Source: a virus
DNA: 64,000 bases
Strand: one strand, 5' to 3'
Virus record (IMG/VR): IMGVR_UViG_3300023176_002545
The translations under genes and the position numbers were made by a program. This document shows, one piece after another, positions 1-17,399 of this stretch (positions within the stretch are counted from its first letter, which is position 1; each line of letters starts with the position of its first letter). The notes beneath the pieces were generated by a model. The model worked only from the letters and a program-made list of their open reading frames with translations. It was not told the origin of the DNA and made no database searches.

Positions 1-5
1 AACCT

Positions 6-308
6 ATGCCTATTGTATCTAATGTTACAGCGTTTAATACTGATCCTTTTAACACTTGGAAAAGTGCATTTAGAGAATGTGTAAAACTAGCGTCACGCTC
101 TATTGACAGACAGCATGATGAAGAAACCGAATACAGACTAACACAGTGGCAGTTTGAAGGAAATAAAAGACGTTATGGAGAATACGCACAAATGGGTGCA
201 AAACAAGGTCAAGAATACGGTGAAGCTAATGCTGATAAACCTGAAGCACTTAAAAAGATAAACGATTTTGATTGGCTTAAAGAGAGGTTTGAAAATGAAA
301 ATACGTGA
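6..308 (+). CDS. C-terminal part of a glycosyltransferase-like protein (probably truncated by window edge), paralog of next gene
   Basis: WKSAFRECVKL matches WRAGFREGVKM in the downstream ORF; frame is open to the window edge. Confidence 0.55.
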   Translation: MPIVSNVTAFNTDPFNTWKSAFRECVKLASRSIDRQHDEETEYRLTQWQFEGNKRRYGEYAQMGAKQGQEYGEANADKPEALKKINDFDWLKERFENENT

Positions 309-1206
309 TATTGATATTATCTATTTGTCATATGACGAACCTAATGCAGATGAAAACTATGCCGATCTGCTTAAAAAAGCACCTTGGGCTAAACGTGTAC
401 ACGGCGTAGAAGGATCAGATGCCGCACACAAAGCCTGTGCAGAACTTGCAGAAACAGAACGATTTATTACTGTTGACGGTGACAATAAAATTTATGCTGA
501 CTTCTTAGAACAAGAAATAGATTTTAAACAACATCCTTATATGAAAAATGCTGTACTAAGTTGGTGCGGATATAATGTAATCAACGGACTTATGTACAGC
601 AATGGCGGTTTAAAATGTTGGCCAAAAGATGTTGTACTAAACATGAAAACACATGAAGCAAGTGAATCAAACGATATTGCTGCTCAAGTAGAATTTTGCT
701 GGAACTTGGATTATATACAAATGAATAGTTGTTATTCAAAGGTATATAATAACGCTACACCTGCACAAGCATGGAGAGCAGGCTTCCGTGAAGGTGTTAA
801 AATGTGTTTGGACAGAGGTCGAAAGTTTAACAGTATAACATTCAAAGATGAAGTCTACTGGCAGAATCTGCATAGACTAATGATATGGCAAATGGTAGGT
901 GCAGATGTTGAACATGGTATGTGGGCAATATATGGAGCACGATTAGGTTGTGTAATGACTAATCTTGAAAATTGGGATTATGTACAAGTTAGAGATTTTA
1001 AGTACCTAAATAGTCTATGGGAAGAAATAACTCAAGATGTAGATGATACTAATATATTGTGGAAAGTAAGAAAGTTAGGATTTAGACTACAGCAAGAATT
1101 AGGATTGCCTGTTGACTTGCCGTTTACTAGAATTCAAAGCGAAATGTTCAAAGACAGTTATACAAATACAGATCGCACAGGTCAAGGATTTATTGATGTT
1201 GAATAA
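295..1206 (+). CDS. GT-A (family 2-like) glycosyltransferase
   Basis: N-terminal IIYLSYDE strand and DxD motif (ITVDGD); ATG at 295 follows AGAGAGG. Confidence 0.6.
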   Translation: MKIRDIDIIYLSYDEPNADENYADLLKKAPWAKRVHGVEGSDAAHKACAELAETERFITVDGDNKIYADFLEQEIDFKQHPYMKNAVLSWCGYNVINGLMYSNGGLKCWPKDVVLNMKTHEASESNDIAAQVEFCWNLDYIQMNSCYSKVYNNATPAQAWRAGFREGVKMCLDRGRKFNSITFKDEVYWQNLHRLMIWQMVGADVEHGMWAIYGARLGCVMTNLENWDYVQVRDFKYLNSLWEEITQDVDDTNILWKVRKLGFRLQQELGLPVDLPFTRIQSEMFKDSYTNTDRTGQGFIDVE

Positions 1207-2581
1207 ACTAGTAAAAAAATTTGCTAGACAGCTAAAGATTGTAAAAGATCCTATTGACCGTATGACTGAAGTAAAAGAAATTACGGATAAAGTTTCTCCT
1301 ACATTTTGTTTGGCAAAATGGCATCACACTACAATATATTTACAAACAGGTGAAACGCATAGTTGTTATCATCCTGCACCGCATATTATTCCCTTACACG
1401 AACTTGAAAACAATCCTAGTGCCCTACACAATACAGTAGAAAAGAAATTACAGCGACGAGAAATGATGGCAGGACTAAAACCTAAAGGGTGTCAGTACTG
1501 CTGGAATATAGAGTGCATGGGCAAAGACTATGTAAGTGACAGGCATGAAAGAAATGCTGGAATCTATACAAAAGAACGATTAGCAGAAATTGTAGACAAT
1601 GATTGGGACTTTAATATTAATCCAGAGTATATTGAAGTTTCATTTGGTAATGAGTGTAATTTAAAATGTGGATACTGTCATCCTAAAGCAAGTAGTAGTT
1701 ACTTTAAAGAAATAGAAGAATATGGCCCTTATGATATGGTTAAAAACCATTCATTTGATACCCGCCGTATGCGTATATACAAAAAGGAAGAAGAAAACCC
1801 TTATGTACAAGCATGGTGGGACTGGTGGCCCCAGGTAAGTAAAACGCTGAACATATTACGCATTACAGGAGGTGAGCCACTTTTGCAACAGAGTACTTGG
1901 CGTTTGCTTGAGGACCTATCCGAGAATCCTCGTCCTAATCTTGAAATCAATATTAACAGTAATCTTGCTGTTAAAAATATACTTGTAAAACGTCTTGCAG
2001 AAAGGGTTAACAAGTTAATTGAAGAAAAGAAAATTAAACGGTTTAAATTGTTTACTAGTATGGACACTTGGGGAACACCTGCAGAATATATTAGAACTAA
2101 CTTAGACTTGTCTGTTTGGGAAAAGAACTTTGATACATGGATGACACAAACAGATCAACCTATTACATTTATGGTTACATTTAATGTGTTGTGTGTAACT
2201 ACATTTAACAAACTGCTTGAAAAGTTTTTAGAGTGGAGACAGAAATATCAAACTGGTACAAGACGCATACGTTTTGATACACCTTATCTAAAAGAACCTT
2301 TGCAGTACGATATGAATATACTTCCTAAAAGTTTTATGAGTTATATGGAAAGTCATTTAGAATTTATCAAAAGCAATCTAGATGACTATGACGTAAACAA
2401 ATTTACAAAACTTGAATATGAAAAGTTTCGTCGTGTTGTAGATTACATGCGTACTACAAACTATGACGAAGAAACCTTAGATATAGGACGAAAAGATTTT
2501 GTTGCTTGGTTTAAAGAACATGATAGACGTCGAGGAACAAATTTTGCTAAAACGTTTCCTGAATTACATGGTATTTTTTGA
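1196..2581 (+). CDS. Radical SAM protein with N-terminal twitch-like Cys domain
   Basis: CNLKCGYC (CxxxCxxC), ITGGEP motif, N-terminal CLAKW..SCYH..CQYC; start uncertain. Confidence 0.9.
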   Translation: MLNKLVKKFARQLKIVKDPIDRMTEVKEITDKVSPTFCLAKWHHTTIYLQTGETHSCYHPAPHIIPLHELENNPSALHNTVEKKLQRREMMAGLKPKGCQYCWNIECMGKDYVSDRHERNAGIYTKERLAEIVDNDWDFNINPEYIEVSFGNECNLKCGYCHPKASSSYFKEIEEYGPYDMVKNHSFDTRRMRIYKKEEENPYVQAWWDWWPQVSKTLNILRITGGEPLLQQSTWRLLEDLSENPRPNLEININSNLAVKNILVKRLAERVNKLIEEKKIKRFKLFTSMDTWGTPAEYIRTNLDLSVWEKNFDTWMTQTDQPITFMVTFNVLCVTTFNKLLEKFLEWRQKYQTGTRRIRFDTPYLKEPLQYDMNILPKSFMSYMESHLEFIKSNLDDYDVNKFTKLEYEKFRRVVDYMRTTNYDEETLDIGRKDFVAWFKEHDRRRGTNFAKTFPELHGIF

Positions 2582-3793
2582 TGGATACGTTGGGTCGTTG
2601 ATTAACTGATTACCTAAGTAATTTTGAGCAGATTCGATAAGTCTTAAAAATTCACTAATTGTGTAATCATTATAATCAGCAAATTTATAATTGTAGTCTA
2701 ATAAATCTTCATTTTTTAATGACCAATCAATTTGTTGTGAACGTGTCATTTTAGAAAGCATAGTACACACACGAACTATTTCTTTTTCTAATTTATTCCA
2801 GCGTTTAACAATGTCTGGTTCAAAGTCAAACTCGTAGTCAAACCAATCAGTGTATAATTTATAACCTAGTCTTTGAAGATTATAGTTTTGTCCTGTTTGT
2901 CCCCATATAAGCACAGGTGTTTTACATACGATAGGTTTAAAAGTTTTTTCGCTATAGAATAAACTAGTTTCTCCCCAATCACTTTGCATAGTTTCAGAAG
3001 TGAGATTAAACAATACTTGATTTTGTAAACCTACTCCTAAATCGTCAGCCCAGTTAGTTTCAAAGTCGGTTGTATCTGCAATAAGAGGAGTAACCCTTGT
3101 TAGAGTTTGTTCCATTTCTTTAGTAAAAAATTTGTTGGCTTTATATTCTTTTGGGTTTAATCGGTCATGACTAAGCAAACCATACTGTGCTACACCTGCT
3201 TCGTGCAGCCTCCAAGTACAATAACTACGCCAAAATCTATTACGTCTAGTTAAGTTAAGATAAAACTTTCCTTGATAGTTTTGTTCTAAACTTTGTCTAC
3301 GGCTAAATCTTCTTTTGCCTTCTGTCATCATAACTTTTTGAAAAGTATCCCAATGCATAATTTCAATAATGTTGATAGGATAGTAATCACCGTGTGTGAT
3401 ATGGAAATTTTTAAAATTTGCTTTTTCTCTAAGATTTCCGCTTAAGAAAAATATAGCAGATGGATCTATGTTATTTTTTATTGCACTATTATATAATGCT
3501 ATAGCAACGCTTTGATGTTCTGGTGCCCAACCTTCGTGTGTACCATCTAATATAAAGATACATTTTCTTTGTCGTAACATATCAAGATAAAATGGTTTTA
3601 TTGAGCTAAACACATCTGTATCTGTATCAAAAGGAGCATCATAGGAATAGTGTGCAAACAGGACAGTTATACTATTATAAGATCCTTTTTTAAGTAGAGG
3701 TATATGTTTTTTATAGTGATAAAAGCAGCCAATCTCACTTGGGCACTCTCTAAAATATTTGGTGTTGATAAGCCAGTCTGTTAGGTGTTGCAT
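2564..3793 (-). CDS. Putative glycosyltransferase (GT10/fucosyltransferase-like C-terminal motif)
   Basis: LFNLTSE...FYSEKTFKPI...PVLIWG resembles the F.L..E...Y.TEK...P motif of GT10-like enzymes. Confidence 0.4.
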   Translation of the reverse strand: MQHLTDWLINTKYFRECPSEIGCFYHYKKHIPLLKKGSYNSITVLFAHYSYDAPFDTDTDVFSSIKPFYLDMLRQRKCIFILDGTHEGWAPEHQSVAIALYNSAIKNNIDPSAIFFLSGNLREKANFKNFHITHGDYYPINIIEIMHWDTFQKVMMTEGKRRFSRRQSLEQNYQGKFYLNLTRRNRFWRSYCTWRLHEAGVAQYGLLSHDRLNPKEYKANKFFTKEMEQTLTRVTPLIADTTDFETNWADDLGVGLQNQVLFNLTSETMQSDWGETSLFYSEKTFKPIVCKTPVLIWGQTGQNYNLQRLGYKLYTDWFDYEFDFEPDIVKRWNKLEKEIVRVCTMLSKMTRSQQIDWSLKNEDLLDYNYKFADYNDYTISEFLRLIESAQNYLGNQLINDPTYPSKNTM

Positions 3794-3804
3794 TGAAAAT
3801 CCAT

Positions 3805-3831
3805 TAAATACTCAGTTAACTAAGATATTTA
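3805..3831. promoter_or_regulatory. Face-to-face pair of T4-late-like TAAATA motifs in an imperfect palindrome
   Basis: TAAATA(3805-3810) CTCAGTTAACTAAGA TATTTA(3826-3831) between divergent genes. Confidence 0.5.
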
Positions 3832-3843
3832 TGAAGGTACAAT

Positions 3844-4974
3844 ATGAGAATAGCATTTATTGGTTTAGGAAAACTAGGACTACCCTGTGCAGAAGAAATA
3901 GCCAAGAGCGGTCACATAGTTTCAGGATATGATATTGTTGAATGCAATACAAATAACGTCAAACAGTTGCCAACAATACAAGAAACTGTAGAAGGTCAAG
4001 AGATTGTATTTGTTGCTGTACCAACGCCACACGACCCTGCATATGACGGTAGAGCTCCTACAGCACACCTAGAGCCAAAAGATTTCAGTTACGATATTGT
4101 TAAAGACGTTTTAACAGAATGTAACAAGCACATGAACAAAGACCAACTGCTTGTTTTAATCAGTACAGTGTTACCTGGAACAACTCGTAGAGAATTTATT
4201 AATTTAGTACCTAATACACGATTTGTGTATAATCCGTATTTGATTGCTATGGGCACAGTTGCATGGGACATGGTAAATCCTGAAATGGTAATGATTGGAA
4301 CAGATGATGGCAGTGAAACAGGTGACGCAAAACAGTTGGTAGACTTCTACAAAACTGTAATGCAAAATGATCCACGTTACGTTATTGGTACTTGGGACGA
4401 ATGTGAAGCAATCAAAGTTTTTTATAATACATTTATTAGTACAAAGATTGGACTAGTAAACATGATACAAGATGTTGCACAAAAGCAAGGCAACATCAAT
4501 GTTGATGTAGTTACCAAAGCACTAGCAGAAAGTTCGCAACGTATCATGGGTCCTAGTTATATGAAGGCAGGCATGGGCGACGGTGGTGCTTGTCATCCTA
4601 GAGATAATATTGCACTACGTTACATGGCAAAAAATCTACATTTAGGATACGACATTTTTGATAGTATTATGAACGCTAGAGAAATACAAGCACGTAACAT
4701 GGCTATTGAAATACTCAAATATGGAAACAAAGTACAGTTTAGTAGTGACAGTTATAAACCAGGTGTAGAATATATAGACGGCAGTTATAGTTTACTAGTA
4801 CAGCATTATGTTAAAGAATTAGGTGGCTGGATAGTAGATAAAGATCCTAGCGTATTTGTAAGAGTACATGATACAGATGCAGTACCTGAAAATGTTACTG
4901 TTTTTGACCCTTGGCGTAATTATGAGGGCCAAAATCCTGTAGTACACTATGGAAATACTAGACACAGCAAGTGA
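3844..4974 (+). CDS. ugd: UDP-glucose/GDP-mannose 6-dehydrogenase family
   Basis: GLGKLG Rossmann motif, FVAVPTP, IKVFYNTF, GDGGACHPRD catalytic Cys motif. Confidence 0.9.
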   Translation: MRIAFIGLGKLGLPCAEEIAKSGHIVSGYDIVECNTNNVKQLPTIQETVEGQEIVFVAVPTPHDPAYDGRAPTAHLEPKDFSYDIVKDVLTECNKHMNKDQLLVLISTVLPGTTRREFINLVPNTRFVYNPYLIAMGTVAWDMVNPEMVMIGTDDGSETGDAKQLVDFYKTVMQNDPRYVIGTWDECEAIKVFYNTFISTKIGLVNMIQDVAQKQGNINVDVVTKALAESSQRIMGPSYMKAGMGDGGACHPRDNIALRYMAKNLHLGYDIFDSIMNAREIQARNMAIEILKYGNKVQFSSDSYKPGVEYIDGSYSLLVQHYVKELGGWIVDKDPSVFVRVHDTDAVPENVTVFDPWRNYEGQNPVVHYGNTRHSK

Positions 4975-4989
4975 AATATGTTATAATTA

Positions 4990-5988
4990 ATGATGATTGA
5001 TGAGAATACTTTTACTGAAATACCATTTGAAAAGATTGTTAAGTTTGGGCAACGTACCTTATTGGAACAGAACCTATTTACTGTCAGTTGGATTCTTGGT
5101 CGCTTTTGCAATTATAATTGTAGCTATTGCTGGCCCTACGCAAGATCAGACAAACCGGACCATTATGATTTATCCGTTTACAAACAGACAATTGATAATA
5201 TAAAATATCAAGCACAGTTAAATGGCTTTAAGAATTTTCATTTTAGTTTCAGTGGAGGCGAACCCACTGCTTATAAATACTTTGGGGAACTTATAGAGTA
5301 CTACTGTAGTGATACAGCACCCGAGTATCAAAGTATACATATGACCACAAATTTATCACCCGGAAGCAAATGGTGGAATAGGTGGTTAGATGCAACAAGT
5401 ACTTTGCAACGTAGAAGTATAACAGCAAGTTTTCACGATGAATTTGCTAACGAGCAAGAGTTTGGAGACAAATGCTTGCAACTAATGAAAGGAGGAACCT
5501 TTGTTACGATTAATCAAGTTATGGTTCCTGAAAGGTTTGAAGAGCTTTACGAACGCCTACAACGATTTGCCGCCAGAGGCATTAGCGTCACTCTCAAACC
5601 TCAGTCCAACAATACTGCCACCGACGTGGTACATGGATATACAAAAGAACAAATTGCAATCATGCAAGCCGGATTCCCACAAAAGTGGCAAGGCGAAAAA
5701 ATCTCGCAAATTGCACTCTACGACGATAAAGGAATAGAGTACGATTTAGATCAAGCAGAACGTTTTAATGCGTTTGGCTTTAATAAGTTTGAAGGCTGGA
5801 CTTGTAATGCAGGGTACCAGGGGATAGTTATTAGAGAAAATGAAGTAAAACGTTCCTATTCCTGTCATGAAGAACCTTTAGGAACAATAACCGATGGGTT
5901 CACTATACATGACGCTCCTAGAAAATGCATTACACGTTCTTGTGTAAGTTCAGCAGATTCTAAACTTCCAAAAGTAAGAGAGATATAA
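4990..5988 (+). CDS. Radical SAM protein (C-terminal SPASM/twitch-like)
   Basis: CNYNCSYC, FSGGEP, C-terminal WTCNAG...SC...C. Confidence 0.9.
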   Translation: MMIDENTFTEIPFEKIVKFGQRTLLEQNLFTVSWILGRFCNYNCSYCWPYARSDKPDHYDLSVYKQTIDNIKYQAQLNGFKNFHFSFSGGEPTAYKYFGELIEYYCSDTAPEYQSIHMTTNLSPGSKWWNRWLDATSTLQRRSITASFHDEFANEQEFGDKCLQLMKGGTFVTINQVMVPERFEELYERLQRFAARGISVTLKPQSNNTATDVVHGYTKEQIAIMQAGFPQKWQGEKISQIALYDDKGIEYDLDQAERFNAFGFNKFEGWTCNAGYQGIVIRENEVKRSYSCHEEPLGTITDGFTIHDAPRKCITRSCVSSADSKLPKVREI

Positions 5989-5990
5989 AA

Positions 5991-6422
5991 ATGTTAAAAC
6001 TAGTTAATGATGATTGGACATTAGGTTATGTAAAAGACGATCCAGTTCGTCCCCATTTGCCTATGCATTGGAGAATAGTAGACGGTAGAGAAGTTTACAC
6101 GTTAGAAGATGACGAAGTAGGTGTTGCCAGGGCTGTTGTTTGTGTAGCATATACCAAAGGTGTTGCTATTACAGAAGAAGAACTAAACAACACAAACGAT
6201 CCTGATACAGCAATGTTTTATACTGTATGGAGTTACGACAAAGGTGCTGGTAGAGAAATTATCTTCAGTACAGCAGATGTTATTAAACGTGACAAGCCAT
6301 ACATCAAACGTTTTTGTACACTAAGTCCATTAACTGAAATGGCAGAAAAGTTTCATTTGCGAAATGGTGCAAAGTTATTACGTAAAGGGGACACTTGTCA
6401 AAACTTTGAGTACATAGTATGA
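5991..6422 (+). CDS. Hypothetical protein, possibly GNAT-fold
   Basis: KGAGREI and AEKFHLRNGAK resemble GNAT acyl-CoA binding motifs. Confidence 0.35.
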   Translation: MLKLVNDDWTLGYVKDDPVRPHLPMHWRIVDGREVYTLEDDEVGVARAVVCVAYTKGVAITEEELNNTNDPDTAMFYTVWSYDKGAGREIIFSTADVIKRDKPYIKRFCTLSPLTEMAEKFHLRNGAKLLRKGDTCQNFEYIV

Positions 6423-7024
6423 AAATTGAACTTGAAGATGTAATGTTCTGGATGGACGCTGTTCGCAACAGTGAAGACAGATATCGTACACTTGAAAGTT
6501 TTTGGAAAGGTCAAATAAGAAGTAAAATATGGTTAACTGAAGCAGTCCAAGCATTAAACTTATACGGTGACAAACGCATTGTAATTCACGGTGGTTGGAA
6601 TGGCGTGTTAGCAAGTATTATGTTTAATAGTAAAATTGGAATCAAACATATTACATCTTTAGATATAGATCCTGTTTGTGAAGAAATAGCAAACACTGTA
6701 AACAAGCGTTATGAGATGGAAGGCAAGTTTACAGCAGTTACAGCAGACATGTGTAATTACAAATATGATGCAGATATAGTAATTAATACCAGTTGCGAAC
6801 ATATTACACAAGAACAATACGAACAATGGTTAGATAATGTTCCTAAAGGAGCAACAGTAGTTTTACAAAGTAATGATTATTTTAATCATGAAGAACATAT
6901 TCGTTGTGCAATAGACTTAGATGATTTTACTCAAATGTCTAAAATAAAAGCTCTTTGGCGAGGCACATTAGATACGCCAAAGTATAATCGGTTTATGATA
7001 ATAGGAAAGAAAGACGTTGTTTAA
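6419..7024 (+). CDS. Class I SAM-dependent methyltransferase-like protein
   Basis: IHGGWNGVLA motif I, SLDID acidic motif II, TADM, VINTSCEH. Confidence 0.65.
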   Translation: MKIELEDVMFWMDAVRNSEDRYRTLESFWKGQIRSKIWLTEAVQALNLYGDKRIVIHGGWNGVLASIMFNSKIGIKHITSLDIDPVCEEIANTVNKRYEMEGKFTAVTADMCNYKYDADIVINTSCEHITQEQYEQWLDNVPKGATVVLQSNDYFNHEEHIRCAIDLDDFTQMSKIKALWRGTLDTPKYNRFMIIGKKDVV

Positions 7025-8084: not shown

Positions 8085-8782
8085 TACATTTTGATCCTAA
8101 ATGGAAAAACATTGGTATAAGCGTAAGTGGCGGTGCTGACAGTGCATTACTAGCATACTTGGTTTGTTCTCAAGTTGAAGATGCTACTGTACATATACTA
8201 AGCCATGTGCGTATGTGGAAAACAAGACCATGGCAGCGTTATGATAGTATTAGAGTTTTTACTTGGCTTGTAAATAGATTTCCTAACATAAGATTTTTAC
8301 GTCACGAAAACTTTATTCCGCCTGATTTAGAATACGGTAGCAAAGGTGCTAACATTGAAGATGAATATGGACAACTTCGTAGTGGAGATCAAATTGCTGT
8401 AAGAGCTCATGCTGAATGGATTGCAGCAACAGAAAACTTAGATGTATGGTATGCTGCAAAAAGCAAAAACCCTAGCGATCCTACAATTACAAAAGGTATG
8501 CCCGACCGCAATATTATAGTTGAAGATCCTAATGAACTTGTTAAAGAACACAATGGTGTAACTGTGTGTCATCCGTTTTTATATACAGAAAAAGATTGGA
8601 TTGTAAAACAATATATTGATAACGATATTATGGATTTGTTTAACATAACACGCAGTTGTGAAGGCGATTTTGAAAACTTAAATTATACAAACTATATAGT
8701 TGGTGAACCTGTACCAGAGTGCGGAGAATGTTTTTGGTGCCAAGAACGCAACTGGGCCAAGGAAAAGAATAATGTCAAATAA
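8081..8782 (+). CDS. QueC-like PP-loop ATPase
   Basis: SVSGGADS PP-loop; C-terminal RSC...CGECFWCQER Zn-binding motif as in QueC. Confidence 0.65.
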   Translation: MIHFDPKWKNIGISVSGGADSALLAYLVCSQVEDATVHILSHVRMWKTRPWQRYDSIRVFTWLVNRFPNIRFLRHENFIPPDLEYGSKGANIEDEYGQLRSGDQIAVRAHAEWIAATENLDVWYAAKSKNPSDPTITKGMPDRNIIVEDPNELVKEHNGVTVCHPFLYTEKDWIVKQYIDNDIMDLFNITRSCEGDFENLNYTNYIVGEPVPECGECFWCQERNWAKEKNNVK

Positions 8783-10184: not shown

Positions 10185-11152
10185 TTGTAAAACTACAAAA
10201 TAATCAAGCACAAGATACACTTCGCATAGAATACATGCTGGGCAATCTCTGCAATCATAAATGCTACTACTGTTTTCCGGGCAGTAACGAAGGCGATCAA
10301 CCTTGGCCTGATATTGACATAGTCAAACAGAATCTAGGACACCTATTAGAACATTATCGCAACAATGGCAAACCCAAAAGCGAAATATTCTTTGTTGGCG
10401 GTGAACCTACACTGTGGAAAGGCTTGCCTGAACTGTGTACATACTTGAAAGAAAAGTTTGATACACGAATCGAAATAAGTTCAAACGGTAGTAAAAGCAT
10501 AAGTTGGTGGAAACGTGAAGCACATAACTTTGATATAGTTGGCATAAGTGTACACAATGAATTTGCAAAATTAGATCATATTAGTGAAGTGTGTGATATT
10601 TTATATGAGAACAATGTTATGGTAAACGCAGATGTTCTTATGGATCCTTTAGAGTTCGACAAGTGCAAAGAAAACATTGAATATCTAAAAGATAATTCTA
10701 AATATGAATGGACTATAATTGCTAAACTTGTACATTTTTCTGGTGAACATAGATATACAGATCTACAACTTGACTATTTTCAAGATCCAATAAAGCGTTA
10801 TCCTAACAAAGAATGGTACGAAAAGAATGTTAGAAAACCGGAGACACTTATTGCAGTATACAAGCAAGGATTTAGACCGTTCATAGTAAAAGATGATAAT
10901 TGGGTAATAAGAAATAAACTAAATCATTTTAAAGATTGGACCTGTAACATTGGTGTTGATTTTATAAAAATTTTTAGTAGCGGACAAATCAGTGGTAACT
11001 GTCAGCAAATATTATACGGTGACAAAATTCACCATAACTTATACAGTAAAGATTTTATACAAAAATACAATCCTAAGATAGTGCCTGTAAAATGTACACA
11101 GGATATTTGTGGTTGTAGTGAAGAAGCATCATGTACAAAAAGAATTTTTTAG
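10181..11152 (+). CDS. Radical SAM protein
   Basis: CNHKCYYC, FVGGEP, WTCNIG..C..CTQDICGC; ATGA overlap with upstream stop. Confidence 0.9.
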   Translation: MIVKLQNNQAQDTLRIEYMLGNLCNHKCYYCFPGSNEGDQPWPDIDIVKQNLGHLLEHYRNNGKPKSEIFFVGGEPTLWKGLPELCTYLKEKFDTRIEISSNGSKSISWWKREAHNFDIVGISVHNEFAKLDHISEVCDILYENNVMVNADVLMDPLEFDKCKENIEYLKDNSKYEWTIIAKLVHFSGEHRYTDLQLDYFQDPIKRYPNKEWYEKNVRKPETLIAVYKQGFRPFIVKDDNWVIRNKLNHFKDWTCNIGVDFIKIFSSGQISGNCQQILYGDKIHHNLYSKDFIQKYNPKIVPVKCTQDICGCSEEASCTKRIF

Positions 11153-12183
11153 ACACACTAGAACCTAATTACTTTCACATAGAATGGGAAAGCACTCTAA
11201 AGTGTAATCTTGACTGTAGTTATTGTGGCGATGGGCATAACAATAAAATACCTCACCCATCTCTTGAAGACAGTTTGCACACTCTTGATTTTATTGTAGA
11301 CTATGTTAGTGTACAATTTAAAACTCGTCCTAAAGCATTACAACAAGCAAGTTTAAATATTTTAGGTGGTGAAAGTTTATTTCATCCTAATATATTAGAA
11401 ATACTTGATTACGTAGATCAAAAAAAGAAACAAGTTGACTGGCAATTTTATATTGGAACTATTACAAATGCAGTAGTTGGAAAACGTTTGTGGAAAAGTA
11501 TAGTTGAAATGTTAGACTATTTTACAGTTAGTTTTCATGCAGAAGCATTACCAAAACAACGCAAACAAGTAAAAGACAATTTATTATATCTTAAAAAACA
11601 AAATAAGAACTTTCATGTTAGCATAATGATGCATCCTAAACAATGGGACGTTTGTATTAACATGATAGAGTTTTGTAAAAATCATGACATGCGATACGAA
11701 ACTCGTCAAATCGATCACGATTGGTTTGATTGGCGATTTAATTATACACCAGAACAAGCAGAATTTATAACAGGAAAACGTCCTGCTAGTTTATTGCAAA
11801 CTGCAACAGCAATAGTAACACAAGGTGTAAATCTAAGTGCAGAAGGTAGAGCCTGCTGCGGTGGACAAACGCTATGTACAAATTCAGGTTGTACTAAATT
11901 TGTAGATAATAGATTCAAAGGTTGGAATTGCAGTGTAGATAAATTCTTTTTGTACATTAGACAAACTACTGGAGAGATATTTACTAATAAAGACTGTAGA
12001 ATGAACTTTGATGGAAAAGTTGGTCCTATAGGAAATCTTAAAAATACACAAGCATTATTAGACAGAGTAGAACAAGGCACTGACACTATTGTTTGTAAAA
12101 AGTCTAGATGTTGGTGCGGCATTTGTGCTCCTAAAGCACTAGACAAAAAAGACTATGAGAGTATAATGACAAGATATGTTTAA
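11131..12183 (+). CDS. Radical SAM protein (CCGG subtype)
   Basis: CNLDCSYC, ILGGES, GRACCGG, CKKSRCWCGICAPK. Confidence 0.9.
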   Translation: MYKKNFLDTLEPNYFHIEWESTLKCNLDCSYCGDGHNNKIPHPSLEDSLHTLDFIVDYVSVQFKTRPKALQQASLNILGGESLFHPNILEILDYVDQKKKQVDWQFYIGTITNAVVGKRLWKSIVEMLDYFTVSFHAEALPKQRKQVKDNLLYLKKQNKNFHVSIMMHPKQWDVCINMIEFCKNHDMRYETRQIDHDWFDWRFNYTPEQAEFITGKRPASLLQTATAIVTQGVNLSAEGRACCGGQTLCTNSGCTKFVDNRFKGWNCSVDKFFLYIRQTTGEIFTNKDCRMNFDGKVGPIGNLKNTQALLDRVEQGTDTIVCKKSRCWCGICAPKALDKKDYESIMTRYV

Positions 12184-13420
12184 TTGGTATGTAAAAAATA
12201 AACTAGGCGAAAGTCTATGTTTAGCAAAGTGGACTAACAGCACAATGCATTTGGGCATAGGAAAGAATCACAGTTGTCATCATCCTAATCCACATGTTGT
12301 TCCTGTTGAAGAAGTGCAAGCAGATCCTAGTGCATTGCACAATAGCTCATACAAACGTAGTGTCAGAAATCAAATGCTCAACGGAGAACGTCCTAGTGAG
12401 TGTGATTACTGTTGGCGTATAGAAGAAACAGAAAAATATAGTGATCGTGTTCTTATGAGCAAGAAGCGTGACAGTTGGCCACATCGCAAAGATATCATTG
12501 CCACTGACAGATACGATCCTACTATGCTAGAAGTTAGTTTCTCAAACGTGTGCAACTTTAAATGTGCATACTGTGGACCACAGTTTAGCAGTTTGTGGAC
12601 TAGCGAAATATCTAACCTTGGTGCGTATCCTACTTCCGACAGTTACAACCAAATACACGAAAAACAAATACTAGACAGAGAACACAATCCTTACATTGAA
12701 GCGTTCTGGGAATATTTGCCTACTATGTATGACAAATTACATACACTTCGTATTACTGGTGGTGAACCTATGCTTAGTAGACACACTGAAAAACTGTTAG
12801 AATATATTACGCAACATCCTAACAAAAAACTTACAGTTGTAATCAACAGCAACCTAGGTGCTCCAAAACACATCATTGCTAACTTTATTGAACTGCTTGA
12901 AAAAGTGCAGAAAAATGTAAAGCGTATAGAAATAGCAACCAGTGGAGAAAGTTATGGCGGACAAGCAGAATATGTTCGTGACGGATTAAACTATCGAGAA
13001 TGGTTATTGAACTGTTATTATGTACTAGCAGCATTGCCTAAACTAAGACTTAACTTGATGTGTGCATACAACGTTTTAAGTATAACAAGTTTTGCTAGAT
13101 TTCTAGATGATGTAGTTGCCCTTAAAAAAGAATATAAACGTGTTACGCTCAGTGTTAGTTATGTAAGGCATCCTAGTTTCCTACATGTATCACTAGCACC
13201 TAAAGTATGGAGACCTATACTAGAAGCAAGTTGCGAAAAAATTAAAAAGCATTTTAATAGCGAAACAGTCAAACGTTTTAAGTTTGTACTAGCAGAGTTT
13301 GATAAGCAACCTACAGAAACACAGTTGCAAGATTTCAAACTGTTTATTTCAGAGTATGATAAACGTAGAGAGAAAAAGTTTTTAGATGTTTTTGGCGAGT
13401 ATGGCTGTATAGTCGGATAG
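12176..13420 (+). CDS. Radical SAM protein with N-terminal twitch-like domain (paralog of 1196-2581)
   Basis: CNFKCAYC, ITGGEP, CLAKW..HSCHHP..CDYCW. Confidence 0.9.
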   Translation: MFNWYVKNKLGESLCLAKWTNSTMHLGIGKNHSCHHPNPHVVPVEEVQADPSALHNSSYKRSVRNQMLNGERPSECDYCWRIEETEKYSDRVLMSKKRDSWPHRKDIIATDRYDPTMLEVSFSNVCNFKCAYCGPQFSSLWTSEISNLGAYPTSDSYNQIHEKQILDREHNPYIEAFWEYLPTMYDKLHTLRITGGEPMLSRHTEKLLEYITQHPNKKLTVVINSNLGAPKHIIANFIELLEKVQKNVKRIEIATSGESYGGQAEYVRDGLNYREWLLNCYYVLAALPKLRLNLMCAYNVLSITSFARFLDDVVALKKEYKRVTLSVSYVRHPSFLHVSLAPKVWRPILEASCEKIKKHFNSETVKRFKFVLAEFDKQPTETQLQDFKLFISEYDKRREKKFLDVFGEYGCIVG

Positions 13421-14449
13421 TTCTTTAGCCTTAGGCACACACATTCCACAACCACATCTTTCATTAGGGCAAACAATAGTTCGTTCTTTGTTTGCGTTTG
13501 CATAAGCAAGTATACTATCAGTGTCTTTAAGGGTGCCTACAGGGCCTCTTAGACCGTCGTGTAGTGCTTGACAGGTCTGATGGTGATACACATTGCCCGT
13601 GTGTTGATCAATGTGTAAGAAGTACTTATTGACGCTGCAAAACCATCCTTTAAAATGTGTATCGACTAGCTCAACTGCTTGCCACTCACCGTTTACTTTG
13701 CCCTGTAAACAGCGACCGCCACAGCATTTACGTCCTAATTCTGTTCCTGCTTTAATTCCTTCGCTAGGTTTTGAAGAATTGGTATAATTGTAAAACCATT
13801 CCTGTTGTTCGTCTGTATAATCGTGTGTTGTTCTACGCAAATTACCATCTGTATCAACAAACCAACCTTTGCGTTCAACATTGCCGTCACCAATAGGACG
13901 AGGATTGTGTTTGATACCTAATATTTTTAACTTTTCACACATTTTAACACCATCAGTCCAGTTGTCTGTGTGCAGCATTACATTAACTTGTAACCAAATA
14001 CCAGCTCTGTGCAATAGTTTAATGTTATCGATTGTTTGTTTTCTTAGTCTAGCGTGACCTTCAGTATGGTAACTTACAGTTACACCGTCAAATAACTTAG
14101 CAATACGATCTGTATTACTTGGATGCCAAGCACCATTAGTAGTTAAACTAAGTCTAAAACGTGTTTCTGTATTTTTAATATGTTCTGCTAGTTGCCAAAA
14201 CGCAGGATTAATTGTAGGCTCACCGCCTGTAAAGTTTATGTTAACTAAATCTGAATATATGCTGGTATACTCTTTTATAAATTCAAAAGTTTTTAACAAT
14301 TCTTCGTAACTATGCGGAGGACTTACATTGTCGTGGCGACTTGCTTCGCAGTATGAACAGTCAAAGTTACATCTACGTCCAGTATCCCAAGTAACCATTA
14401 AGCGTTCTGGTCCTGTTAAGTTTATAGCACTAGTTTGTATCATTCGCAA
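13382..14449 (-). CDS. Radical SAM protein (CCGG subtype, paralog of 11131-12183)
   Basis: CNFDCSYC, FTGGEP, GRKCCGG, CPNERCGCGMCVPK. Confidence 0.9.
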   Translation of the reverse strand: MRMIQTSAINLTGPERLMVTWDTGRRCNFDCSYCEASRHDNVSPPHSYEELLKTFEFIKEYTSIYSDLVNINFTGGEPTINPAFWQLAEHIKNTETRFRLSLTTNGAWHPSNTDRIAKLFDGVTVSYHTEGHARLRKQTIDNIKLLHRAGIWLQVNVMLHTDNWTDGVKMCEKLKILGIKHNPRPIGDGNVERKGWFVDTDGNLRRTTHDYTDEQQEWFYNYTNSSKPSEGIKAGTELGRKCCGGRCLQGKVNGEWQAVELVDTHFKGWFCSVNKYFLHIDQHTGNVYHHQTCQALHDGLRGPVGTLKDTDSILAYANANKERTIVCPNERCGCGMCVPKAKELSDYTAILAKNI

Positions 14450-15338
14450 CCTTTGTTAACGGAATGTCAGCAGCACAAGTACACCATTTGCGTGTACAAA
14501 TAACTGCTTCTTCAGGCGGTTCAAATGATCCATCGTATATATTTCCCAAACTTCCGCCTACTCTGCAAGTAGCTCGATGCACATCACCATCCCAATTAAT
14601 CATTAAACTCTCTAATCCTGCATTACAAGTCCAACCTTCAAACTGATTACGTTGTTCTTTAATAATATCATTAGCGTGTGCAAGTTCTTCATCGTCAATA
14701 ACGCAGTTTTCTTTGGCAGTAGACTTTTGATCTAGTATCCAACGCAGATCTTTTTCTTTATATTTCATGTCATCAAACCAATCGTGCTTTTCTGTCCAGC
14801 GTATACGTCTAACAACATAAGGAATATTGTGGCCGTCAAACATCATTGCACACTGTTTTACTCTGTCCATGTGTTCGTGATGTGCCATTAGATTAACTTG
14901 ATAAGGAATATTCTTTTCAATTTCGTTTAGTTGTGACCAATGAAGTATATTGTCAGCACATCGACGCCAATTTTTATCATCTTCTACATGCAAACTAAAC
15001 ACATAATGACTTACAGGAAGTCTATTATATAGTTCTGGCGGCAGTGTTGCATTGGTTGTTATGTTAACCCAATCTAATCGTTGGCTAGCGTGTTCAACAA
15101 TTTCTTCTATATCAGGATGCACACAAGGCTCACCACCTGTTAAACTTAGTCTAATAGGTTTACCTATTTCATAGAGTGCGTCTATTACATCTAGCATAAC
15201 TTTAACATTGGTATGTGGACTAAAGTTGTCATGTATTTCCGCAGGACAATAGGTACAATCTAAATTACAGCGTTTACCAATGTTCCATTCAACATGAATA
15301 CTGTCTTGATGATCCCATCTGCTAGTTATTGAATACAT
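14430..15338 (-). CDS. Radical SAM protein
   Basis: CNLDCTYC, LTGGEP, WTCNAG..C..CTRKWCTC. Confidence 0.9.
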   Translation of the reverse strand: MYSITSRWDHQDSIHVEWNIGKRCNLDCTYCPAEIHDNFSPHTNVKVMLDVIDALYEIGKPIRLSLTGGEPCVHPDIEEIVEHASQRLDWVNITTNATLPPELYNRLPVSHYVFSLHVEDDKNWRRCADNILHWSQLNEIEKNIPYQVNLMAHHEHMDRVKQCAMMFDGHNIPYVVRRIRWTEKHDWFDDMKYKEKDLRWILDQKSTAKENCVIDDEELAHANDIIKEQRNQFEGWTCNAGLESLMINWDGDVHRATCRVGGSLGNIYDGSFEPPEEAVICTRKWCTCAADIPLTKVANDTN

Positions 15339-16138
15339 TCTACGCCCTTAACTTTATTAAATGATTTTAAGTATTCTATATCTATACCATTTACAGCTAA
15401 GTCTGCAACAGGAATCATACCTAAATTTATATTCTTAAATGTAAAAGATTGTAATTTAAGCCAAAGTTTTATATATGCTTTTCTTATAGCATACAACCAA
15501 TAAGGAATAGTAGGACCAAACTTAACCATAAAATCTGCACTATAATATTCTTGTGGTCTAACACCTTGTGCTATGCTGTCTTTGTCTTTAAAAACATCTA
15601 ATACAGTTTTACCTACTTGACAGTAGTTAATATAAACAGTACCATGTGTCCATCTAAATGTAAAGTGCTTCATATCTTCTTCTGTTAGATTTATTATAGG
15701 TCTGTCTTTGAATGTAACAACTACAGTAGGATGATTTTTTGTTCTAAGTTCTGCTTCTAGTTTGTGTATTAGTACATTAAATCGTTCAACTGCTTCTTGT
15801 GCTTCACTAGGTGCAGTATTAAACCACTCTGTTCCTTTATCTACTTCGCCGCGTAGGTCTTCAAAGAACTTGTGTAAGTAGTTTAAATCTCCTTGCATAT
15901 CAGTGCTTGCACTACTAATATATCGATCAATACAAACTCCATGTTGATTTATTTTAGTAATACACTCATTAAGTTCTGGAATAAGATTTTGTGTACCCCA
16001 ATTAGTAAATCTATCTGTTTCGTAAAGCTCGTAATTTTTCAACAGTTCCTCAAACCATTTTTTAGCAATGCTAGTATTTCTTACAGTGAAAGGTATACTA
16101 ACATTTTCCTTGTCATTTGTCAATACCAAATTAAACAT
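15326..16138 (-). CDS. Hypothetical protein
   Basis: Long ORF packed between radical SAM genes; second Met (MFNLVL) is the likely start. Confidence 0.7.
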   Translation of the reverse strand: MFNLVLTNDKENVSIPFTVRNTSIAKKWFEELLKNYELYETDRFTNWGTQNLIPELNECITKINQHGVCIDRYISSASTDMQGDLNYLHKFFEDLRGEVDKGTEWFNTAPSEAQEAVERFNVLIHKLEAELRTKNHPTVVVTFKDRPIINLTEEDMKHFTFRWTHGTVYINYCQVGKTVLDVFKDKDSIAQGVRPQEYYSADFMVKFGPTIPYWLYAIRKAYIKLWLKLQSFTFKNINLGMIPVADLAVNGIDIEYLKSFNKVKGVECIQ

Positions 16139-17399
16139 ATGGAGCAAACTCCGGATTAGTAGCAAGAAAATCCTGTCCACGAGTTGCGTCTAAACGTTTA
16201 TTAAATTCAATACAGTCAGCCCAGTGTGTGTCGTGCATATCTTTTGCTTCTAAGAAGTTTATGTTGTCTTGTATTTGTTGTAGAGTAACTTGTTTTACAA
16301 TATCGTGTTCTTTTACAAGTTTGTATTCAAGCACCTTATGCTTCATTTGCTCAAGGCGATTAACTATACCTGTCTTTAATAACTTTGGTAGTACTTGTGC
16401 AGAAAGTGCCATTGGATAGTTTACACGATGCGAGTAAAATATAATGCCCATTTCTTCTAAAAAGTATTCTATTACTTTGTCAATCTGCATAATGTTATTT
16501 GCTTGTACAGTAAACGCACCAACTACACGACTTACATTAGGAAATGATTTAAAAACTTTTACGTTTTCTTCTATTTCGCTAAACTTGCCATTGCCTCTAA
16601 TATATTCGTAGACATCGTGTATGCCGTCTATGCTTACATTTACAGCAATGCTTTTAAACTTAGGCCAATAGTCGTGTATAGTACGTCCGCCTTTAATGCC
16701 TAGTGTAGTTCCGTTTGTAGCATACTTTAATTCTATTTGATGACCATACTCTGCAAGTTTGTCTAGTATCTTGTAATGATATGGATCCATTAGAGGTTCG
16801 CCACCGGCAAACTCTACTCTACGGAAGTACGGTAATAGTTTTTCAAAACTTGTCCACCAATTGTCACTATTGTCAAACGGACCAATATATTGACCTGGAA
16901 CATCAACTAATTTTTGAACAGTAGGTACAAGATAGTTTTCTTCCTTTTCATAAAATTCTGTAACTTGATCCCAATCTTTCCAACTTGTGCTGTCCAAAGG
17001 ATTGCACATACGACACTTCAAATTACATAAATTATTGAGTTTGATTTCCATTGTAGGAAGCTCAAATGGCATGCTATAATCTTCGTTTAAAGCGTCTAGT
17101 GCATCAGGGTATAAGTTGACCCTTGCTTCTGGTATAACACCCGCTGTATGACGCTGTCGTAAGCTCTGTACACCCTGATCTTCAAGGTCAAAGCACGGTT
17201 TGCATACATCTGGACGCTCGTTATTGAGAACTTGTTTTCGAACAAGTTTCATTGCATCCGAATTCCATGCTTCTTCTAAACTTTGATTTTGGATCCATGC
17301 AATTGGCTGACTGCGACAGCACACTTTAATTGCACCATCTTCTCTAGTTGCCAATCCAGTAAATGGATGCATACAAAATGTACAACTATTTGATTTCAT
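16131..17399 (-). CDS. Radical SAM protein with N-terminal twitch-like domain (paralog of 8772-10184)
   Basis: CNLKCRMC, FAGGEP, FCMHPF..CC..CKPC. Confidence 0.9.
   Translation of the reverse strand: MKSNSCTFCMHPFTGLATREDGAIKVCCRSQPIAWIQNQSLEEAWNSDAMKLVRKQVLNNERPDVCKPCFDLEDQGVQSLRQRHTAGVIPEARVNLYPDALDALNEDYSMPFELPTMEIKLNNLCNLKCRMCNPLDSTSWKDWDQVTEFYEKEENYLVPTVQKLVDVPGQYIGPFDNSDNWWTSFEKLLPYFRRVEFAGGEPLMDPYHYKILDKLAEYGHQIELKYATNGTTLGIKGGRTIHDYWPKFKSIAVNVSIDGIHDVYEYIRGNGKFSEIEENVKVFKSFPNVSRVVGAFTVQANNIMQIDKVIEYFLEEMGIIFYSHRVNYPMALSAQVLPKLLKTGIVNRLEQMKHKVLEYKLVKEHDIVKQVTLQQIQDNINFLEAKDMHDTHWADCIEFNKRLDATRGQDFLATNPEFAPYV

Follow-up and report, generated by a model that had tools for sequence, protein, structure and literature searches.

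Cultured phages seldom carry radical SAM enzymes, and the locus analysed here raises the question of what an uncultured giant phage from a salt marsh does with ten of them. The window, i.e. the whole stretch of 64,000 nucleotides under study, contains ten ORFs with a CxxxCxxC motif between 1.1 and 17.4 kb, all of them intact and all matched by the Pfam model PF04055; no further ORF of at least 120 amino acids in the 64-kb window carries the motif. The count of ten such enzymes in 17 kb, which an initial annotation had reported, is thereby confirmed. The answer that we favour, given the sugar-handling genes nearby both in the phage and around its cellular relatives, is a sugar or glycan substrate. 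In particular, we hold with about even confidence that a cassette for building sugars has its radical-chemistry half in this island, with radical tailoring of nucleotide-sugars or of a glycan and decoration of a surface.

The window belongs to a phage, as indicated by a family-B DNA polymerase with 50% identity to that of Sinorhizobium phage Phosso, a ligase and other replication genes, and this phage is a giant member of the T4 supergroup. Among uncultured marine T4-type phages, radical SAM cassettes occur beside tail fibres, glycosyltransferases and UDP-glucose dehydrogenase (UGD) in the host recognition cluster of pelagimyophages (Zaragoza-Solas et al. 2020, PMC7029224), and one T4-like marine genome has 12 radical SAM genes (Nishimura et al. 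2017, PMC5332604), both papers mentioning these genes in passing only. The likeness is one of gene class, and the polymerase places our phage nearer to Atu_ph07 and Phosso than to these marine phages. A gene for FolE (GTP cyclohydrolase I) lies at 34283-34972 of the window. Solving the chemistry of the cassette would give a function to thousands of "hypothetical" viral genes, would probably uncover new radical carbohydrate or protein chemistry and would show what giant phages place on virions or host surfaces.

The ten radical SAM proteins

The start of the window falls inside the cassette. Its genes are tightly packed, with a largest intergenic gap of 54 bp, and the radical SAM genes are interspersed with genes for UGD, one or more GT-A-fold proteins, a methyltransferase-like protein, a PP-loop ATPase and Fe/2OG hydroxylase-like proteins. 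Conservation is given below for 80 related viral loci (at least 80 contigs carry the cassette).

r1, 1196-2581 (alternative start 1112), plus strand: family A, N-terminal twitch; variable
r2, 4990-5988, plus strand: family B, C-terminal four-Cys twitch; core
r3, 7017-8084, plus strand: singleton; CQASCPMC, without GGEP motif
r4, 8775-10184 (alternative start 8700), plus strand: family A, N-terminal twitch; best-conserved gene of the cassette
r5, 10181-11152 (alternative start 10142), plus strand: family B; fixed position after r4
r6, 11131-12183, plus strand: family B, extra CCGG insert; variable
r7, 12176-13420, plus strand: family A, N-terminal twitch; variable
r8, 13382-14449, minus strand: family B, CCGG insert; variable
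r9, 14430-15338, minus strand: family B; core
r10, 16131-17399, minus strand: family A, N-terminal twitch; core

Eight of the ten proteins exceed the PF04055 cut-off of 29.5 bits (among them r2 with 48, r3 with 37.4, r5 with 47.7, r8 with 56.7 and r9 with 50.3 bits), whereas r1 (26.7 bits) and r6 (27.6 bits) lie slightly under it. These two are counted as radical SAM proteins because r1 scores 316 bits with NF033640 and r6 matches r8 with a BLASTP E-value of 8e-55. An all-versus-all BLASTP comparison yields a family of four (A), a family of five (B) and the singleton r3, with 20-31% identity within the families (31% between r7 and r1). Each of the ten, r5 included, represents an old orthogroup of its own, r6 being sister to the r8 group. 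The proteins had been described as ten paralogs; this is partly right, since they are related within families but fall into three families and ten old orthogroups.

Family A corresponds to NF033640 (N_Twi_rSAM; cut-off 170 bits), a catalogue entry that covers four of the ten island genes only: r1, r4, r7 and r10 score 316, 390, 290 and 335 bits, and the remaining six are non-members with 34-44 bits. In its members an auxiliary four-Cys twitch module stands in front of the CxxxCxxC core. C30, C49, C105 and C108 precede C162/C166/C169, and all of these are invariant across 34 phage and cellular sequences except C49 (at least 90%). PF13186 covers residues 55-133 in r4 and 9-69 in r10. Family B begins straight at the core and carries a C-terminal four-Cys twitch that is invariant in the family alignment. 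With four conserved auxiliary Cys in each of these two families, against the seven (two clusters) of SPASM domains, the auxiliary sites are, judged by the alignments, twitch-type with a single cluster site and not SPASM. All ten enzymes, r3 among them, thus combine the CxxxCxxC cluster that cleaves SAM with a single additional four-Cys site of twitch type.

None of the island proteins reaches the curated NCBIfam cut-off of a named equivalog. The best scores and their cut-offs in bits are 53/180 for viperin_w_prok, 48/284 for MoaA, 33/131 for NrdG2, 38/381 for PqqE, 33/260 for QueE and 28/349 for sulfatase maturase, and the BlsE model gives 20-22 bits against a cut-off of 400. The best NCBIfam matches of r3 are likewise far under their cut-offs, and the C-terminus of r9 aligns with the tail of the STM4011 family at a score far under the STM4011 cut-off. 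A mere collection of NrdG, PqqE and MoaA genes was therefore rejected. Assignment to separate known families, which the initial annotation had named as the outcome that would refute it, is thus not what the HMM searches returned for NrdG, MoaA, PqqE, QueE or viperin.

In the AF2 model of r4 (pLDDT 87), the nearest folds to the core are anSME (Z 13.7), CteB (13.1), BlsE (12.8), viperin (12.6), DesII (12.3) and SkfB (12.2), with EpeE also among the top neighbours. Peptide-modifying and sugar- or nucleotide-modifying enzymes rank level, and the fold is therefore uninformative on the substrate.

It is conceivable that a phage protein, such as one of the neighbouring fibres, is the direct target of the whole enzyme set (radical SAM, hydroxylase, methyltransferase and GT-A) and receives D-amino acids, cross-links and hydroxyl, methyl and glycosyl groups, as peptides do in proteusin and other RiPP pathways. 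We consider this unlikely. Proteusins are typically tailored by several enzymes, hydroxylases and methyltransferases among them, and the RiPP maturases (anSME, CteB, SkfB, EpeE/YydG, PoyD-type) share the core fold and an auxiliary cluster with the island proteins, anSME being the top fold match. Moreover, SPASM/twitch enzymes are known chiefly for the maturation of peptides (PMC11002830). However, the island has neither a precursor-peptide gene nor room for even a short one in its gaps of at most 54 bp, and no leader-binding (RRE/PqqD-like) domain was matched by Pfam at E ≤ 0.01; the N-terminus of family A is the twitch module. The single auxiliary cluster site and the scores far under the equivalog cut-offs also set the island apart from these maturases.

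Partner genes of the cassette

g00, 3-308, plus strand: C-terminal 101 amino acids of a GT-A-like protein truncated at the window boundary; g01 paralog
g01, 295-1206, plus strand: GT-A fold, DxD (VDGDN); probable glycosyltransferase
g03, 2564-3793, minus strand: no assigned domain; variable
UGD, 3844-4974, plus strand: UDP-glucose/GDP-mannose dehydrogenase family; variable
g06, 5991-6422, plus strand: small protein, weak GNAT-fold hint
g07, 6419-7024, plus strand: methyltransferase-like; core
g09, 8081-8782, plus strand: PP-loop ATPase (SGGADS), C-terminal Cys4 motif; QueC-like in outline
g16, 15326-16138, minus strand: conserved protein between r9 and r10
g18, 17454-18119, plus strand: Fe/2OG beta-hydroxylase-like; travels with the cassette, outside the island as first delimited
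g19 and g20, 18116-19203, plus strand: conserved syntenic partners

The initial call of a GT-A enzyme at 295-1206 was borne out by the DxD motif and by fold matches of its AF2 model (pLDDT 86). VIA aligns g01 with B4GALNT1 (Z 11.0, 140 residues, 2.9 Å rmsd), and further GT-A matches in Foldseek and VIA, at Z 9-10.7, are a Leptospira glycosyltransferase, STIV A197, SunS/ThuS and WrtF; ppGalNAc-T and the PBCV-1 capsid glycosyltransferase are also among the neighbours. D61 and D63 of the conserved VDGD motif are invariant. Nucleotidyltransferases of the same fold reach Z ~9.4, and neither Pfam nor PHROG matches g01; going by the model, it is probably a glycosyltransferase. The truncated g00 aligns with homologues of 225 amino acids that start with MYDIVFISYxEPNADEN...VDGDA, an N-terminal signature shared with g01. 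The predicted UDP-glucose dehydrogenase also holds, with PF00984 (3.1e-17, 62.9 bits), PF03721 (3.5e-17, 63 bits), phrog_9148 (3.5e-92) and the catalytic-Cys motif GGACHPRD in the translation; the C-terminal UDP-binding domain is absent from its Pfam matches.

Other assignments found no such backing. For the supposedly GT10-like g03, searches against Pfam, PHROG and PDB profiles gave no match, and none of its 56 homologues carries a domain. For the GNAT-like g06, the match to PF05292 (MCD_C) stays under the cut-off (E 1e-4); it has a homologue in none of the 80 loci and is private to this phage lineage. The methyltransferase call for g07 meets PrmA and Methyltransf_25 matches at E 0.006-0.007 only, under their cut-offs. 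As to the QueC-like g09, PF06508 gives 16.2 bits against a cut-off of 22 and covers the C-terminal 74 residues only, phrog_1550 (1.3e-7) matches the C-terminal Zn motif only, and PF06508 is found on one of the 120 listed among at least 2529 homologues. The SGGADS and C..C..C columns are invariant, and by its sequence g09 is a member of a separate PP-loop family, not QueC. No Pfam, PHROG, PDB-profile or Atlas relative was found for g16, the start of which was set at residue 15 after the Atlas record.

Beyond r10, the g18 profile matches PDB 7v4f (Cpz10) at E 9e-16, its H..D..H columns are invariant and it is syntenic in relatives. The alignment of g20 shows an invariant HxD...H triad, and its link to g18 is weak (hhalign E 0.002, probability 14%); no PDB match was found. 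Modification of a protein would agree with the beta-hydroxylase-like g18 and with SunS/ThuS, ppGalNAc-T and the PBCV-1 capsid enzyme as GT-A neighbours of g01.

Some of the partners might instead suggest that nucleotides or DNA are hypermodified, i.e. that a modified base is built or decorated and the transferases glycosylate DNA, possibly linked to GTP cyclohydrolase I and the QueC-like ATPase. The FolE gene and the QueC-like outline of g09 would suit such a function, as would viperin, MoaA and QueE as weak sequence neighbours of the radical SAM proteins and the fact that Cpz10, the nearest solved relative of g18, acts on a nucleoside (PMC9814697). Nevertheless, we regard it as very improbable: the cut-offs of QueC, QueE, viperin and MoaA are reached by no protein, g09 belongs to its separate family and travels with r10 and r4 rather than with FolE, DNA glycosyltransferase, hydroxymethylase and DNA-kinase families are unmatched in Pfam and PHROG searches, and the cellular relatives lie in glycan clusters.

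Promoter-like motifs

Divergent GGTAAATA / GATAAGTA pair, 17397-17456, unstranded: each 5 nt before an ATG; T4-late-like

RTAARTA-N5-ATG occurs five times in the window against 1.55 expected, always at an ORF start, the two sides of 17399/17454 being among these places. The divergent pair is kept at the same place in five related loci (L008, L067, L069, L047 and L007). The canonical TATAAATA is not enriched (2 observed, 6.9 expected). Of the initial annotation's TAAATA-type motifs, the one at 17405 falls within this pair, and those at 3805-3831 are looser. By analogy with T4, the conserved motif may point to late expression of the cassette. Contigs from RNA libraries of four salt-marsh samples match most island genes at 100%, although they may stem in part from carried-over DNA.

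Distribution and conservation in viruses

The synteny check in related phages, as proposed initially, showed that the cassette is kept in at least 80 viral contigs, and it is abundant in marine and marsh viromes. The gene r4 is present in all 80 loci with 81-97% identity (median 86%) and was found at this identity on 203 IMG/VR contigs; its homologues number 4183 at E ≤ 1e-10. The conserved core further comprises g07 (79/80 loci, 50-70% identity), r9 (66/80), r2 (65/80), r10 (58/80, 66-90% identity, median 83%), the GT-A-like g00 (57/80, 50-87% identity) and the PP-loop ATPase g09. The position of r5 is syntenic and that of r3 next to r2 is kept. The variable part consists of the glycosyltransferase-like genes, UGD and r1, r6, r7 and r8; r1 occurs in only 8 of the 80 loci (identity at least 45%), r6 in 15 and r8 in 18. 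In one related contig, PF04055 is matched fifteen times. That r4 and r10 have changed so little would agree with a conserved protein target, and for r4 it counts against sugar tailoring, as genes that tailor glycans are normally variable.

In the relative G001 (84% identical), fibre-like structural proteins lie about 6 kb upstream of the cassette: proteins of 1971, 697 and at least 1511 amino acids are located 6-20 kb upstream, the first with stretches like cyanophage structural or YadA-type proteins. Instead of the virion, the sugar chemistry could be directed at the LPS or capsule of the infected cell, blocking superinfection or the adsorption of progeny. The glycosyltransferase, UGD and radical SAM genes of the pelagimyophage clusters have been read in this way (PMC7029224), and the same sets of enzymes occur in free-living Bdellovibrionota, where there is no virion to decorate. 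On the other hand, the T4-late-like motifs at operon heads and the fibre-like neighbours in G001 fit virion assembly better, and the window shows no recognisable flippase, polymerase or lipid-carrier transferase, so that we judge conversion of the host surface to be quite improbable.

Cellular relatives

The three radical SAM families are common to the phage and to predatory Bdellovibrio-type bacteria. Bdellovibrionota genomes have 12-20 radical SAM copies, with all three types together. The r1 orthogroup includes Bdellovibrionota sisters with 39-40% identity, r2 has sisters in Bdellovibrionales (44-45%), r3 has cellular sisters at 30-32%, and a cellular sister of r10 exists as well.

Several of these relatives lie amid sugar genes. 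An N-twitch relative in a Lysobacterales MAG neighbours GT4, two PhyH dioxygenases, a CBM4_9 protein and GT87, and a relative of r7 in a Leptospiraceae MAG adjoins a DegT/EryC1 sugar aminotransferase; BtrN is likewise paired with an aminotransferase. One Bdellovibrionales array has a GT1/GT28 transferase and a methyltransferase as neighbours. The DegT, GT4 and GT87 contexts, together with UGD in the phage, indicate sugars and speak against direct protein modification, as do the intergenic spaces of the Bdellovibrionales arrays, in which transposase-like fragments and not peptide genes were found. The Asp/Asn hydroxylases (PF05118) carried by Bdellovibrionota arrays count for protein modification, and in several Bdellovibrionales arrays the radical SAM genes simply follow one another and no sugar gene adjoins them, which counts against sugar tailoring.

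Proposed radical tailoring of sugars

In the preferred reading as a sugar-building cassette, UGD would convert UDP-glucose to UDP-glucuronate, and each radical SAM enzyme would attack one particular C-H bond of a sugar and remove its hydrogen. With the help of the auxiliary cluster, the sugar might then be oxidised to a keto sugar, as in BtrN, or undergo epimerisation, deoxygenation or decarboxylation, as with DesII, AprD4 and BlsE. It could next be methylated and hydroxylated and a carboxylate activated at the expense of ATP, before the GT-A enzymes transfer the products. The core (r2, the methyltransferase-like protein, r4, r5, r9, r10 and the PP-loop ATPase) would be responsible for a single invariant product, a rare sugar or a motif, the decoration of which would be varied by r1, r6, r7, r8, UGD and the transferases. 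The acceptor would probably be a virion fibre or another virion protein, or alternatively the envelope of the infected cell.

BtrN, DesII, AprD4 and BlsE act in sugar pathways with the same radical SAM core and, in most cases, an auxiliary-cluster domain; the substrate of BlsE is a glucuronate moiety and that of DesII a TDP-sugar. The island differs in sequence scores far under the cut-offs of these families, in the permutation of the family A auxiliary domain to the N-terminus and in its ten enzymes, where known sugar pathways use one or two.

Sugar tailoring is supported by ten radical SAM enzymes of which none falls into a named functional family, by the invariant twitch-type sites of families A and B, by UGD and a GT-A fold with DxD inside the operon (with the g00 paralog in most loci), by the sugar genes around the cellular N-twitch relatives and by the lack of space for a precursor peptide and of a Pfam-detected leader-binding domain. 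The fibre-like proteins near the G001 cassette and the precedent of the pelagimyophage host recognition cluster (PMC7029224) point in the same direction. Against it stand the level fold ranking, the variability of UGD and most transferases, a core in which the GT-A-like g00 is the one recognisable sugar enzyme, and the fact that AspH/Cpz10-like hydroxylases and GT-A enzymes such as SunS/ThuS act on peptides too. A literature search found no experimentally tested NF033640 member and, to our knowledge, no member of the three radical SAM families has been assayed, which also weighs against sugar tailoring. The uncharacterised multi-step modification pathway of the initial annotation agrees with the lack of named families and the packed, conserved cassette; its choice among virion protein, glycan and DNA as substrate is here a matter of weighting.

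Somewhat more tentatively, giant phages and predatory Bdellovibrionota might draw on a common toolkit of at least ten orthogroups that diverged long ago, each performing a different functionalisation of a sugar or glycan C-H (epimerisation, oxidation, deoxygenation or decarboxylation). If true, this would mean a radical route to rare sugars that is independent of the nucleotide-sugar pathways of the host, and several new enzyme activities would be defined together. The Bdellovibrionota, whose genomes contain up to some 20 copies each, offer cultivable test organisms. One design within such a toolkit is the auxiliary-cluster domain permuted to the N-terminus.

Radical SAM enzymes of the island

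The initial annotation had counted ten radical SAM enzymes by their CxxxCxxC motif, and this count is confirmed: exactly ten such ORFs lie between 1.1 and 17.4 kb, all of them match PF04055, and the motif is absent from all other ORFs of at least 120 aa in the 64-kb window. The island genes abut or overlap each other, and the largest gap measures 54 bp and is found at the heads of the divergent operons (3793/3844 and 17399/17454). However, the description of the ten enzymes as one paralogous set has to be narrowed, since all-vs-all BLASTP resolves three groups.

Grouping of the ten radical SAM genes (r1-r10, in window order) by all-vs-all BLASTP
Family A: r1, r4, r7, r10 (20-31% identity within the family)
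Family B: r2, r5, r6, r8, r9 (20-31% identity within the family)
Singleton: r3

With the NCBIfam model NF033640 ('twitch domain-containing radical SAM protein', cut-off 170), the members of family A reach 290-390 bits. The auxiliary cysteines of this family (C30, C49, C105 and C108 in r4) are located N-terminal to the CxxxCxxC core and are conserved in 34 phage and bacterial sequences. Family B has its core at the N-terminus and four invariant cysteines at the C-terminus (WxC...C...C....C), and r6 and r8 possess an extra CCGG insert. None of the ten proteins reaches the NCBIfam cut-off of a RiPP maturase model or those for MoaA, NrdG, PqqE, QueE, viperin and anSME, so that a dispersal over families like NrdG, PqqE and MoaA, considered initially as the counter-case to a common pathway, is not observed. 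In quick FastTree phylogenies, which have long branches and are reliable for orthogroup assignment only, each of the ten genes forms its own clade of phage orthologues, and bacterial sequences are sisters to the clades of r1, r2, r3, r4 and r10.

Other genes of the cassette

The accessory genes discussed here are the following (window coordinates):
3-308: g00, truncated first ORF of the window, paralog of g01
295-1206: g01, GT-A-like
2564-3793 (−): g03
3844-4974: UDP-glucose dehydrogenase (UGD)
6419-7024: g07, methyltransferase-like
8081-8782: g09, PP-loop protein
15326-16180 (−): g16 ORF, between r9 and r10
17454-18119: g18
18116-19203: g19 and g20

The identification of the UDP-glucose dehydrogenase is solid (Pfam and PHROG matches). 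The GT-A assignment of g01 also holds, with a predicted GT-A fold (pLDDT 86) and an invariant DxD motif; the model aligns with B4GALNT1 (Z 11.0) and with other GT-A enzymes (Z 9-10.7), among them viral enzymes as well as SunS and ThuS, which glycosylate peptides. In related phages, the g00/g01 module occurs in tandem fusions of at least two modules (L008:559-1896, L014:3817-5751 and L007:1650-4196), with proteins of 445, 644 and 848 aa.

Other assignments could not be confirmed. The supposedly GT10-like g03 is placed by neither Pfam, PHROG nor PDB profiles and its homologues carry no domain, while the methyltransferase and GNAT calls go back to sub-threshold Pfam hits. The protein g09, described as QueC-like, is a PP-loop ATPase that has the SGGADS motif and, at its C-terminus, a Cys motif. 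Its family is a separate one with at least 2529 members, in which the QueC domain is almost never present. An orthodox QueC was not seen within the 64-kb window.

Just beyond the stretch initially delimited, g18 resembles the Fe/2OG beta-hydroxylase Cpz10 (E 9e-16) and g20 contains an HxD...H triad; hhalign comparisons of g18 with g20 and with a PF05118 protein from Bdellovibrionota were not significant. Pfam and PHROGs provided no usable match for g00, g01, g03, g16 and g19-g24, nor for ten accessory proteins from related loci, and PDB profile searches gave nothing significant for g01, g03, g09, g16, g19 and g20. An ESM Atlas search with g16 had no return. Since the ESM Atlas record of this ORF begins at residue 15, translation probably starts with the ATG at 16138, and the apparent 50-base overlap with r10 would vanish.

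Distribution among viruses

The r4 protein matches 203 IMG/VR contigs with 79-95% identity, and 4183 proteins are homologous at E 1e-10 or better. Gene content was compared in 80 related loci.

Occurrence of cassette genes in 80 fetched loci, many of them truncated (identity at least 45%)
Core: methyltransferase-like g07, 79/80; r9, 66/80; r2, 65/80; r10, 58/80; g00, 57/80; PP-loop g09, 49/80
Variable: r8, 18/80; r6, 15/80; UGD, 11/80; r7, 11/80; r1, 8/80; g03, 3/80

The genes r3 and r5 keep their position across relatives, their sequences being more diverged. Median identity is 86% for r4 and 83% for r10 and far lower for neighbouring genes (53-67%). Related loci contain 6-11 radical SAM genes each. 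In an 84%-identical relative, the contig (G001, which includes locus L008) shows two clusters with 15 matches to PF04055 in total, and the window's own genome may possess a second cluster outside the window, too. In G001, the second cluster is located at about 114-122 kb, far from the main island, and comprises about five matches.

Relatives in bacteria

In a scan with one genome per species, full-length relatives were mainly found in MAGs of Bdellovibrionales and Oligoflexia and in Halobacteriovorax, and single relatives in Lysobacterales, Aliidongia and Leptospiraceae. Halobacteriovorax marinus (locus L086) has a homologue in single copy. Three Bdellovibrionota genomes, one of only 1.9 Mb, possess about 12, 16 and 20 copies above the NF033640 cut-off, a level reached by no protein in 14 model genomes. 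The Bdellovibrionota arrays also carry r1-like (39-40%), r2-like (44-45%), r3-like (30-32%) and r9-like genes, and therefore the three families travel together in bacteria, too. The MAGs concerned (L081, L087, L110-L114) have sizes of 1.9-4.4 Mb and 12-20 copies with the N-terminal twitch, some of which are recent tandem duplicates with transposase-like HTH fragments in between.

Neighbours of bacterial relatives (annotated by hand, few loci only)
Lysobacterales: GT4, two PhyH dioxygenases, FGE-sulfatase domain, CBM4_9 protein, GT87
Leptospiraceae: DegT/EryC1 sugar aminotransferase
Further array neighbours: two PF05118 hydroxylases and a sulfatase-like protein
Further array neighbours: GT1/GT28 transferase and methyltransferase

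Other bacterial arrays consist of nothing but radical SAM genes in a row, broken by transposase-like fragments. The GC content of the Bdellovibrionota loci (0.32-0.41) is close to that of the phage (0.37), a similarity that is no evidence of a host and at most a possible hint.

Possible substrates

In the reading with the best support, the radical SAM enzymes would modify nucleotide-sugars, or else a glycan for subsequent transfer by the GT-A enzymes. Enzyme classes, their conservation and the neighbouring sugar genes in phage and bacteria are established, whereas we infer substrate, individual reactions and acceptor, and we give the reading an even chance of being correct.

The predicted structure of r4 is confident (pLDDT 87), and its core aligns with anSME (Z 13.7), CteB (13.1), BlsE (12.8), viperin (12.6), DesII (12.3) and SkfB (12.2). 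Fold searches (Foldseek, VIA, VIA wide) led to nothing more specific than the common radical SAM core, and enzymes acting on peptides, on sugars and on nucleotides came out level; BtrN is not among the listed matches, an absence without any weight. The modelled fold thus confirms the superfamily and is uninformative on the substrate, because the core aligns about equally to enzymes of different substrates. An ESM Atlas search with r4 returned viral radical SAM clusters only.

The peptide-acting fold neighbours, together with the strong conservation of r4 and r10 and the presence of hydroxylases, would also suit a direct modification of a virion protein. We regard this alternative as a serious rival, though a less likely one. 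No precursor ORF or peptide was found in the island, nor a peptide in the Bdellovibrionales arrays, which weighs against a classical RiPP system. The weakest of the readings is a role in DNA or nucleotide modification, which appears very improbable to us.

Large fibre-like proteins are encoded a few kilobases upstream of the cassette in a close relative, in agreement with the radical SAM cassettes noted in pelagimyophage host-recognition clusters (PMC7029224) and with the 12 radical SAM genes noted in a marine T4-like genome (PMC5332604). Phage radical SAM arrays have already been mentioned in these two papers, and the island is a further instance and not a first sighting. In our literature search, no paper dealt with enzymes that have an N-terminal twitch, with radical SAM arrays in Bdellovibrio or with glycan pathways of jumbo phages that use radical SAM enzymes. 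The N-terminal twitch architecture is unstudied, and the literature searched does not describe a toolkit common to phage and Bdellovibrionota.

Promoter motifs and expression

Five copies of the motif RTAARTA-N5-ATG are present in the window (1.55 expected), always at ORF starts:
17397-17411 (−)
17442-17456 (+)
21088-21102 (−)
21106-21120 (+)
53746-53760 (−)

Two back-to-back divergent pairs are among these sites, one of them at the starts of both genes that diverge at 17399/17454, and the position is kept in relatives whose proteins are about 50% identical. The motif resembles the T4 late promoter; the canonical form TATAAATA is not enriched in the window, and scans for sigma-70 promoters and terminators remained at background level. 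Since the motif stands exactly 5 nt before the ATG and is conserved in relatives, the sites suggest T4-late-like transcripts that have no leader or almost none.

Parts of most island genes are matched at 100% identity by contigs from the RNA libraries of four salt-marsh samples, with DNA carry-over being possible; cover is patchy and of low depth, and uncovered bins are meaningless. Contigs from two RNA libraries skip 148 bases within the UGD gene (4304-4453) and have loose ends that differ from the window, which probably reflects related strains with a variable segment.

The phage and its genome

The window is phage DNA with a GC content of 36-38% and was found again in many salt-marsh metagenomes. 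Its family-B DNA polymerase is 50% identical to the enzymes of Sinorhizobium phage Phosso and Agrobacterium phage Atu_ph07, and further replication genes include a DNA ligase and an HNH endonuclease. Megablast of the first 20 kb revealed no DNA-level match among cultured phages, and tblastn with r4 found three records only (Ralstonia phage RsoM2USA and Vibrio phages K566 and K567; 24% identity, annotated as hypothetical). For two island genes, identical proteins are encoded on a 185,898-bp contig. Since a 159-kb fragment of a close relative is estimated to be 44% complete, the genomes of these phages probably have a size of about 350 kb.

Among unknown genes, the window also encodes a GTP cyclohydrolase I (34283-34972, −; PF01227, 3.1e-38) and a phosphoribosyltransferase-domain protein (35776-36348, −). 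In two large proteins of 871 aa (49472-52087, −) and 612 aa (55730-57568, −), a short segment matches endolysin families in their peptidoglycan-binding part, and no assignment was obtained for the remainder of either protein.
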